Position numbers: made by a program. From NCBI RefSeq assembly GCF_057098645.1, contig NZ_CM169472.1: 64,000 nt of DNA. One strand, 5' to 3'. Of this stretch, positions 30,901 to 33,900 are shown piece after piece. The number at the start of each line of letters is the position of its first letter. Within the stretch, counting starts at the first letter, position 1.

Positions 30901-33900
30901 CAGTGCGGGTTGCAGATATTCAGGGATGGTGTTGTCAGACATTTTCCGGCTCCTCGTCACTTCAGGTTAAGAAAATTGTGACGTACACCGGACAACAACA
31001 CGACGCATTGCAGATGTGCCAGCCCTGACACAGGAGACTCATCCTCAGACCGGCAAGCCAGGAAAAGGTCGCAGGAAAAACCGGCTTACTGTTTGTTTTT
31101 TTATATTTTACTGTTCACCTCTGTTCACCATAAGAAAAAAGATAAGTAATACAGTAAGTTAAATGGTGAACAATCGCAGTAATGACTGTTCACCGTCTGT
31201 TCACCACTGTTCACCCGTTGATGGACTTTTTGTGCTGTTTACTACTGTTTATTTTTATTAATTCACTGAAATAAATAAGAAAAAACAATTTGTATTTCAC
31301 TATAATTTTTTCCAGCTCCTTCCAGAGCGTTTTAAAGCTATCTGGCGCTGATATACAAAAAATGCACAGCCATTGTAAGGCTGCCGGAACAAATCCCCCC
31401 TGTTGCGTCTGCCAAAAATATTCACAAAATAAAGCGCTACCCGAAGCCGGACGGACTTATCCGGTGCTGTATGGACATTAACGAGGTAGCCCGATGCAAG
31501 CTGTTTTTTCTTCCCCGTCTCCCGCCCCTGTGACGCCACTGATGCCGCTGCCGGACATCACGCAGGAGCGTTTTTTACGTCTGCCGGAAGTGATGCACCT
31601 GTGCGGCCTGTCACGCTCGACCATCTATGAACTCATCCGTAAGGGGGAATTTCCGCCGCAGGTGAGTCTTGGCGGTAAAAATGTGGCCTGGCTGCACTCT
31701 GAAGTCACCGCATGGATGGCCGGACGCATTGCCGGACGCAAACGGGGGTACGACGCATGATAGTGCCCGCTCTGCAAAAACTCCCTTTTTCTGGCTTGCC
31801 TTTTTCCGGCATTTGCGGATATAGTTTTTCCGCTGCCGCAAAATCGGCAGCCGGGCGTGAGAACCCGTGTAGCTCGAAGGCGACATATGACGCGCCATGC
31901 GTCTTTTTTTGTGTCGCAATCAACGCCACAGAGCGCCAGATTATGGTGTGGCGTGTGGTTTGCCGTGCAGGTATGATCCTGTTCGCAATCGCATGTTATG
32001 CCACTGAGTCAATGGTAGCTCAGGCGGGGCAGCCTCCGGGCTGGCCGGTATTCTTCGAGGCCGGTATTCTCACCCCCGTCTGGGCTATCGCCATCGAGCG
32101 TGAGAACTCCGGCGATAGCAGTTATTTGCTACTCGAAGGAGGCTGCCTTATGGCTACAACCCTTACCCCCTCACACCCTGAATTTGTCTTTGTGTTTGCG
32201 GCTGTCCGTCGCGCAGACCGTCATCCCCGTATCTGCATGCTTCGCACCGTCGCCGGTGATGAACGCAGCGCCCGCCGTTCCCTTGTCCGTGACTATGTGC
32301 TCTCCCTTGCTGCCCGTCTGCCGGTGGTGGAGGTGTCCCGTGCGTAATAAAAGCCCCTCAGACCGTCTCAGCGCGTCATGACGCCCGTGAACACCTCAGC
32401 ATTGAGGCTTACCATAAGCTCAACCGCGCCAGCGCCGTATCCCGGTTTGTTGGGGGTGATTTGATTCACCGTGAACTCTCCGGCCTGCATCAGCTCTACA
32501 TTCCGCATATTTTCAGTTACCTGAATGAAGATATTGATTTTGTGCTGAATGAACTGAAAGCCAAAGGCCTGTGCCGCGATTTTCTCGCCCAGCAGAAAGA
32601 CCGGGGAGACAGGACGCATGTTTGATTTTCCCCAGCCCGGTGAGATTTACCGTTCTGCCGGTTTTCCCGATGTGGCCGTGGTCGGCATTCTGGAAGACGG
32701 TATTCCGTGGGAAATGCCGTACCGCTGCCCGGACATTGTCTGGAACCCGTACCGCCGTAAATTCAGTATCCTTGTGCGTATCCTCGCTGACGGGCGCACC
32801 ACAGACATCCCGCTGGGGCGTTTTCTGCGGGAATTTACCTGTGACCGTCCTGACCTGTTTAAACGCAGCCCCGTAAACCGGCATGCGGTACTGAAAGAAA
32901 TGGCCGGAGACCCGGAATTACAGAAATGGCGGGAGAAATATCTGGATATTTACCCGCAGGACCCTGTTCCGGTCAGCCGGGCGGCACCGGTGGCGCGGGA
33001 ATGGCGGGAAATTCCCCGCACGGAGCCTGACCCGGAAATCACCCCGGATAACAGTTACCGCAATTATCTGTAATTAAAAAACGACACCCGAAAAATTAAA
33101 TGTGCGTATTCGCGCAGGGATACGCACGTCTTCAGGAGACGCAGATATGCCTTATCAGTTAATGCAACCGGCACGGAATGCAGTCATCTGTCACAGGGAG
33201 GAAAACAAATGAAAACACCCTTACCGCCCGTCTTACGCGCTGCCCTTTACCGTCGCGCTGTCGCCTGTGCCTGGCTGACCGTGTGCGAACGTCAGCACCG
33301 CTACCCGCATCTCACCCTTGAGTCACTGGAAGCGGCCATCGCCGCTGAGCTGGAAGGCTTTTATCTGCGCCAGCACGGTGAGGAAAAAGGGCGTCAGATA
33401 GCCTGTGCCCTGCTGGAAGATTTAATGGAATCCGGCCCCCTGAAGGCCGCGCCGTCGCTGTCCTTTCTCGGGCTGGTTGTGATGGATGAACTCTGTGCCC
33501 GTCACATAAAAGCGCCGGTACTGCACTGAAGGAGAACAACACCATGAAAATGAACGTAACCGCCACCGTCAGCCATGCGCTCGGCCACTGGCCGCGTATT
33601 CTCCCGGCGCTGGGGATTCAGGTGCTGAAAAACCGTCATCAGCCCTGTCCGGTCTGTGGCGGGAGTGACCGCTTCCGTTTTGATGACAGGGAGGGGCGCG
33701 GCACCTGGTACTGCAATCAGTGTGGTGCCGGTGACGGCCTGAAACTGGTTGAAAAGGTGTTTGGTGTCTCCCCGTCCGACGCGGCCGCAAAGGTGGCTGC
33801 CGTGACCGGCAGCCTGCCCCCGGCTGACCCGGCAGTGACGGCTGCCGCCGGTGCTGAAACAGACGCTGCCCGGAAGAACGCCGCCGCACTGGCACAAACC

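Follow-up and report, generated by a model that had tools for sequence, protein, structure and literature searches.

The DNA analyzed here (the window) is a 64-kb stretch in which a P4-like prophage of about 13 kb is inserted at selC, immediately upstream of the LEE; this prophage is the element that hosts the replicon described below. Its left boundary lies in the tRNA-Sec gene selC (23156-23250, plus strand; identified by ARAGORN and Rfam RF01852), the 3′ end of which forms the attL core (23230-23253, plus strand; repeat search). Next comes the gene for a selC-associated tyrosine integrase of the P4 family (23413-24591, plus strand), recognized by BLASTP and by the Pfam domains Arm-DNA-bind_3, Phage_int_M and Phage_integrase, with 38% identity to P4 Int. 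It is followed by two cargo genes matching the candidate defence proteins ‘Hydrolase’ and ‘Hydrolase-TM’ of PADLOC (24641-26147), by a cos site in which the junction of the P4 right and left ends is preserved (~26231-26290), by intact psu and delta genes (26421-27567), and by sid, which is interrupted at approximately codon 176 and flanks an insertion sequence at 27772-30410. The order then continues with ori1, vis, a CI-RNA immunity region containing the P4 immunity RNAs c4-a1b1, isrK and C4/CI RNA (31819-32095), the genes epsilon, orf151, cnr and alpha (32350-35877), crr and attR. The attR core (GACTCCTGTGATC-TCCGCCAAAC; 36354-36376, plus strand; repeat search), which repeats the selC 3′ end in direct orientation, lies 130 bp after crr. 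Directly past attR the LEE genes start, among them espF (37230-38117) and espB (39157-40095), both on the minus strand. Our assignment of the prophage context rests on selC, int, attR, cos and the immunity RNAs. A repeat search of the 64-kb window did not find a third selC-type att copy bounding the LEE, the far end of which probably lies beyond base 64000.

Two genes of the prophage are damaged. The element in sid belongs to the IS21 family (istA and istB, minus strand), as indicated by the Pfam domains rve, Mu-transpos_C_2 and IstB_IS21 and by the break in P4 homology; it has TG...CA ends, terminal multi-repeats and a 5-bp target duplication (CCTGC), and istB copies are labelled ‘ISSso4 family’ by PGAP. 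In epsilon, a 2-bp deletion in an A-run is located just past the position of P4’s GTG start, with the first in-frame start codon not before codon 43, and residues 5-95 are 100% conserved relative to P4. An ORF of only 54 aa called at this place reflects the deletion. The prophage has lost capsid-size redirection (sid) and probably also helper derepression (epsilon). As judged from the sequence, its functions for helper exploitation are damaged and those for replication, integration and the packaging site are intact. The preliminary description of this DNA did not mention the interrupted sid, the frameshifted epsilon, or an integrase and att module that is not that of P4. The gene order of the window element is that of the P4-like satellite prophages of Enterobacterales, in which int, hotspot, psu, delta, sid, alpA, epsilon, cnr and alpha follow one another (Moura de Sousa and Rocha, 2021; PMC8628076). 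The core of the ‘Type A’ satellites among them comprises int, psu, delta and sid along with alpA, epsilon and alpha (PMC8628076). In the window this core is found in P4 order, with int, psu, delta, alpA/vis and alpha intact and sid and epsilon broken, and the element is a decayed member of Type A and not a different kind.

Exact matches to the octamer TGTTCACC were counted on both strands of the window. There are 12 copies, and 11 of them are confined to two short stretches: six copies within 31112-31215, starting at 31112, 31122, 31187, 31198 and 31208 on the plus strand and at 31165 on the minus strand, and five copies within 35928-36191. The lone copy elsewhere, at 6514, is compatible with background, and within the prophage no exact copy on either strand was found outside the two clusters. 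When one mismatch was allowed, the variants TATTCACC, TGTTCACA and TCTTCACC were added in the second stretch, and similar clustering was absent from the rest of the window. The preliminary description had reported clusters of the same octamer at two sites about 4.7 kb apart. The counts bear this out, with 4708 bp between the last iteron of the first cluster and the start of the region that contains the second. It had also proposed a comparison with the frequency of the octamer elsewhere: in dinucleotide-preserving shuffles of the window the octamer was found 1.72 times on average and at most 6 times, and 12 or more copies were reached in 0 of 100 shuffles, so the observed number is not at background level. 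Using the shuffle density, Poisson probabilities were ~1e-18 for the first cluster and ~3e-13 for the second. Together with the retention of iteron positions in eight P4-like elements (see below), these values make it vanishingly improbable that a short motif has clustered here by chance, and this explanation was dropped.

The first cluster is located in the sid-vis intergenic region. Its six type I iterons form the ori1 core (31112-31215; defined by motif count, P4 alignment and conservation in eight elements), with start-to-start spacings of 10, 43, 22, 11 and 10 bp. An ori-like cluster had been proposed at 31105-31220, upstream of an alpA-like gene, and all six copies do fall inside that interval. 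The alpA-like gene is vis/ORF88 (31494-31760, plus strand), which begins about 280 bp downstream of the cluster and encodes an AlpA-family DNA-binding protein (Pfam PF05930 Phage_AlpA, E=7e-21) identical to P4 ORF88 at 87 of 88 residues. By base composition, the 35-bp stretch between iterons 2 and 3 (31130-31164) is AT-rich (83% A+T), as are the flanks of the array at 31090-31111 (86% AT) and 31216-31320 (74% AT). By analogy with P4, 31130-31164 is presumably the region in which the DNA is unwound.

Downstream of this array, alignment to P4 revealed a patch of about 50 bp (31307-31355) that differs between the two elements. At this place P4 has three ‘ori type 2 repeats’ (CTTTAAGTGG-like; positions 2420-2449 of the P4 record, L001), annotated inside its rep_origin feature; these repeats were absent from the window, where unrelated sequence is present at ~31307-31355. 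At least three alleles of the patch (P4, window and O157 types) occur in elements that share over 90% identity elsewhere. The type 2 repeats were considered as a conserved origin element and rejected, being replaced in the window and variable among close relatives, and a P4-type origin is probably not defined by them. The minimal ori1 of P4 measures 123 bp and consists of the six type I iterons and the 35-bp AT-rich region; the type 2 repeats, we assume, lie outside it. Because the minimal ori1 contains only these two components, variation in the patch should leave origin function unaffected, and any novelty in a role for the patch is speculative. P4 has a second origin, ori2, inside alpha.

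The second cluster lies beyond the Rho-independent terminator of alpha (35885-35909, plus strand), which was located by P4 alignment, reads GACCGGCA-TCTG-CCGGTC followed by seven T residues, and is identical to ‘t-alpha’ of P4 (6997-7021 in the P4 record). Fourteen base pairs past this terminator the crr begins with the first of two direct repeats on the plus strand (35923-36042), which aligns with positions 7035-7154 of P4; the second (36104-36223) aligns with 7215-7334. The two repeats are identical at 99 of 120 positions and are separated by a spacer of 61 bp, compared with 60 bp in P4. Five iterons were identified in each repeat when one-mismatch variants were counted, as in the P4 annotation, and both orientations are present. 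In repeat 1 they start at 35928 (minus), 35942 (plus), 35960 (plus; TATTCACC), 36003 (minus) and 36012 (minus; TGTTCACA), and in repeat 2 at 36109 (minus; TCTTCACC), 36123 (plus), 36141 (plus; TATTCACC), 36184 (minus) and 36193 (minus; TGTTCACA), those given without a variant being exact copies of the octamer. The preliminary description had placed two direct repeats of about 100 bp at 35920-36210, just after the alpha terminator. The repeats themselves and their position stand, and the five exact octamers fall inside that interval; the repeat length needs correction to 120 bp. Homology to P4 stops exactly at 36223, the last base of repeat 2.

The position of the second cluster also bears on whether the octamers could be mainly transcriptional operators, serving, for example, autoregulation or the control of Psid and PLL, two divergent promoters, and not replication sites. 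Such a role would fit the placement of the first cluster between these promoters, in the intergenic region of sid and vis, and a late-promoter-like motif (TGT-N12-ACA) at ~31374-31391, just downstream of the variable patch. However, the same octamer builds crr, which follows a terminator at a distance of 130 bp from attR, where no gene begins. Furthermore, the octamer occurs nowhere else in the element, and both sites are annotated as replication sites in the P4 record. We therefore consider an operator function of this kind highly improbable, and it was dropped on account of the motif’s use in crr, downstream of the terminator.

When 30000-37500 was compared with phage records by megablast, 30406-36223 proved to be 97.1% identical to Enterobacteria phage P4 (X51522 / NC_001609). 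At the homologous positions, the P4 annotation lists six ‘ori type 1 repeats’ (2212-2315 in the P4 record, for the ori1 array), a ‘crr (cis required region for replication)’ and, in two copies with five ‘ori type 1 repeats’ each, a ‘crr 120bp direct repeat’. The proposal that the two clusters match the ori/crr arrangement of P4 thus agrees with the annotation of P4 itself. The alignment to P4 ori and crr that had been suggested as a check was also carried out: in pairwise comparison all six ori1 iterons are the same as in P4 in sequence, spacing and orientation, and the crr iterons, including the degenerate ones, are equally unchanged in all three respects; the crr repeats as a whole are nearly identical to those of P4. 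Together with the counts, these alignments indicate that the two octamer clusters are very probably the two parts (ori1 and crr) of the bipartite origin of a P4-type satellite-phage replicon.

The proteins expected to act at these sites are encoded in the same element. The alpha gene (33544-35877, plus strand) lies between ori1 and crr, and its uninterrupted reading frame encodes a protein of 777 aa that is identical to P4 alpha at 770 of 776 residues. Pfam, P4 and PDB matches identify it as the initiator, with a primase, an SF3 helicase and, at the C-terminus, a winged-helix domain for origin binding. The Pfam domains detected were Zn_Ribbon_Prim (a Zn-ribbon), Toprim_3, D5_N, DUF5906 (SF3 helicase) and Pox_D5, and residues 671-770 match PDB 1ka8, the solved origin-binding winged-helix domain of P4, with E=1e-63. 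Substitutions relative to P4 (at residues 100, 103-104, 126, 152 and 775; two C-terminal mismatches) all fall outside 671-770. Upstream of alpha, an intact cnr gene (ORF106, DUF5375; 33209-33529, plus strand; Pfam PF17345 and P4 identity) encodes the P4 replication copy-number regulator, which is identical to P4 ORF106 at 106 of 106 residues. [quoted passage not shown] As alpha and Cnr are both intact, the replication module is complete, as the preliminary description had supposed.

How such a module would work can be taken from P4, in which alpha binding, the cis sites, the helicase and primase activities and control by Cnr are established biology. In the window element, alpha, encoded between the two sites, would bind TGTTCACC at ori1 and at crr via its C-terminal winged-helix domain, and replication would need both sites in cis. 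The AT-rich DNA would be opened by the SF3 helicase of alpha, and priming would be carried out by its primase domain. The expected outcome is bidirectional theta replication without host DnaA, DnaB and DnaG. Cnr would bind alpha and raise its affinity for the iterons, and copy number would in this way be restrained. The literature on this mechanism reportedly includes work by Flensburg and Calendar in 1987, Ziegelin and colleagues in 1993, 1995 and 1997, Tocchetti and colleagues in 1999 and Yeo and colleagues in 2002. The P4-type mechanism has been textbook material since the late 1980s and 1990s, and the finding of ori and crr here is known biology. Since the cis sites and the replication proteins are all unchanged from P4 or nearly so, we predict that the replicon of the selC prophage, when derepressed, would be competent.

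The window element and P4 share the octamer, the number, order, spacing and orientation of the iterons, the 35-bp AT-rich spacer, the two 120-bp crr repeats and the placement of crr after the alpha terminator, in addition to alpha (99%) and Cnr (100%). They differ in that P4 has the type 2 repeats where the window element has another patch of about 50 bp, integrates at leuX and not at selC (the integrases are 38% identical), and carries gop, beta and cII in place of the different cargo found here. The damage to sid and epsilon also sets the window element apart from P4. A broader likeness exists to iteron plasmids such as P1, F, R6K and pSC101, in which short repeats beside an AT-rich region are bound by a replicon-encoded initiator and a second iteron cluster acts in control or initiation, as in P4. 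In contrast to these plasmids, the P4 initiator is itself helicase and primase, and crr is required for initiation and not only for inhibition.

To place the element among its relatives, complete E. coli genomes were searched. A 441-bp ori region was found in 1067 of 5426 genomes, at identities from ~99% to ~68% and at up to 4 places per genome. Six relatives, inserted at selC, leuX, ssrA and another site, were taken from these matches. In three close relatives the same pattern of 6 + 5 exact octamers was observed at the same relative positions, with a sixth exact octamer in the crr of one of them. In an alignment of eight elements, the core TGTTCAC did not vary at any of the six ori positions, including those of elements only 68-84% identical, and the flank just 3′ of the last ori iteron was practically unalignable. 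The crr repeats showed the same behaviour among P4-like elements, with conserved iterons in diverged adjacent DNA. As far as their sequence goes, ori and crr are essentially unchanged from P4, and the class of prophage to which they belong is common in E. coli.

Variation within the iterons was observed at base 8, where T replaces C in 5 of 6 ori iterons of one element (L007), whose alpha C-terminal domain is 72.6% identical, in 3 of 6 of a second (L009; 77.8%) and in 0 of 6 of a third (L008; 93%). These values, from three lineages only, hint that base 8 may co-vary with the origin-binding domain of alpha.

Cryptic prophages of the P4 family also occupy selC next to the LEE in EHEC O157:H7, where the element is called ‘933L’, and in O145:H28. 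The closest selC-LEE relatives of the window element were found in O145:H28 and two cattle-type strains, with ~97% identity over 75% of a 17.5-kb query; none of the complete genomes searched covered at least 80% of window positions 22500-40000. In size, the part not covered in the closest relatives corresponds approximately to the IS plus the cargo. The listed relatives have cargo other than that of the window element, namely GapS4a or a DEAD/DEAH helicase together with ISEc8.

The damage to the prophage raises the question of whether sites homologous to P4 ori and crr might belong to a replicon that no longer fires in this strain, as a silent relic of a decaying cryptic prophage. The splitting of sid by the IS21-family element, the loss of the epsilon start-codon frame through the 2-bp deletion, and the fixed position of the element beside the LEE, shared by its relatives in O145:H28 and other strains, are all consistent with this, and because of its partial decay the prophage may never be induced in nature. 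However, alpha is free of stops over 777 aa and 99% identical to its P4 counterpart, Cnr is 100% identical, all 16 iteron copies are unchanged relative to P4, and none of int, vis, cos, attL and attR is missing. In addition, other E. coli genomes contain copies with 100% identity to the IS, which suggests that its insertion was recent. We regard a silent relic as unlikely and favor a replicon that would be competent upon derepression.

Two further readings of the locus are modestly novel and speculative, and we think it quite improbable that they apply. First, derepression without excision could fire ori1 in situ and send a replication fork into the LEE, by which type III secretion genes would be transiently amplified. 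Such a fork could reach the LEE because ori1, alpha and crr are intact, crr is 130 bp from attR, and the LEE lies directly beyond; an analogue would be the ‘escape replication’ of prophages. Second, the groups distinguished by C or T at iteron base 8, with the corresponding alpha binding domains, may represent replicon specificity groups, which would allow one genome to harbour several P4-like elements.

The main use of identifying ori1 and crr in this element is correct annotation, including that of the selC-LEE junction, and the finding means little beyond that. The presence of a complete replication module together with int, vis, cos, attL and attR helps to judge whether the prophage may be able to excise and replicate.

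In the diverged P4-like elements from other E. coli genomes used for comparison (L007, L008 and L009), which carry ori at about 6050-6150 and crr after alpha, the iteron consensus drifts from TGTTCACC to TGTTCACT. This drift accompanies divergence of the C-terminal DNA-binding domain of alpha, the P4 replication initiator (72.6-93% identity across the three elements). In a count limited to obvious iteron clusters, one instead of two was found in the crr of L007 and L009.

A variable patch of roughly 50 bp (31307-31355) was observed at the site of the three "ori type 2 repeats" of P4, where the window carries unrelated sequence instead. 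At least three alleles of this patch were present among P4-like elements that are otherwise >90% identical, and in comparisons with integrase type and Vis sequence the alleles tracked neither.

The P4 immunity RNA system (31819-32095) was recovered intact by Rfam, comprising the c4-a1b1 targets (31819-31871), isrK (31832-31909) and the C4/CI antisense RNA (32008-32095). The "cI ORF" region overlapping these RNAs shares only 83% protein-level identity with P4; no other part of the shared backbone has diverged as far. In epsilon, the helper derepression gene of P4, the A-run directly 3' of the P4 GTG start (32340-32352) is shortened from AAAAAA to AAAA, a 2-bp deletion, and a search for in-frame ATG, GTG or TTG codons upstream of 32461 found none left. 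Residues 5-95 are nevertheless 100% identical to P4 despite loss of the start frame. Epsilon is probably a recent pseudogene.

The capsid-size redirection gene sid is also disrupted, in this case at approximately codon 176 by insertion of a complete IS21-family element (istA and istB, 27772-30410). The element has TG...CA ends, multiple terminal repeats of roughly 19 bp each and a 5-bp target duplication (CCTGC), and its istB copies are labeled "ISSso4 family" by PGAP. Copies 100% identical to it were found on other E. coli chromosomes as well as on plasmids; matching places numbered as many as 33 in a single genome. At the int-psu hotspot, where P4 has gop, beta and cII, the window instead contains two cargo genes (24641-26147) with matches to candidate defence models of PADLOC, namely "Hydrolase" (PDLC03008, HAD-family; E = 6e-198) and "Hydrolase-TM" (PDLC03009; E = 9e-141).

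The attR site of the prophage (36354-36376) repeats the 3' end of selC, and the LEE pathogenicity island starts directly beyond it, with espF (37230-38117) and an espB/SctB-like gene (39157-40095) both on the minus strand. Within the gap between attR and espF, a segment of roughly 360 bp (36683-37044) showed ~85% identity to many Stx-converting phage records. Given the position of attR 130 bp past crr, with the LEE immediately following, the elements stand in the tandem order selC, P4-like prophage, LEE.
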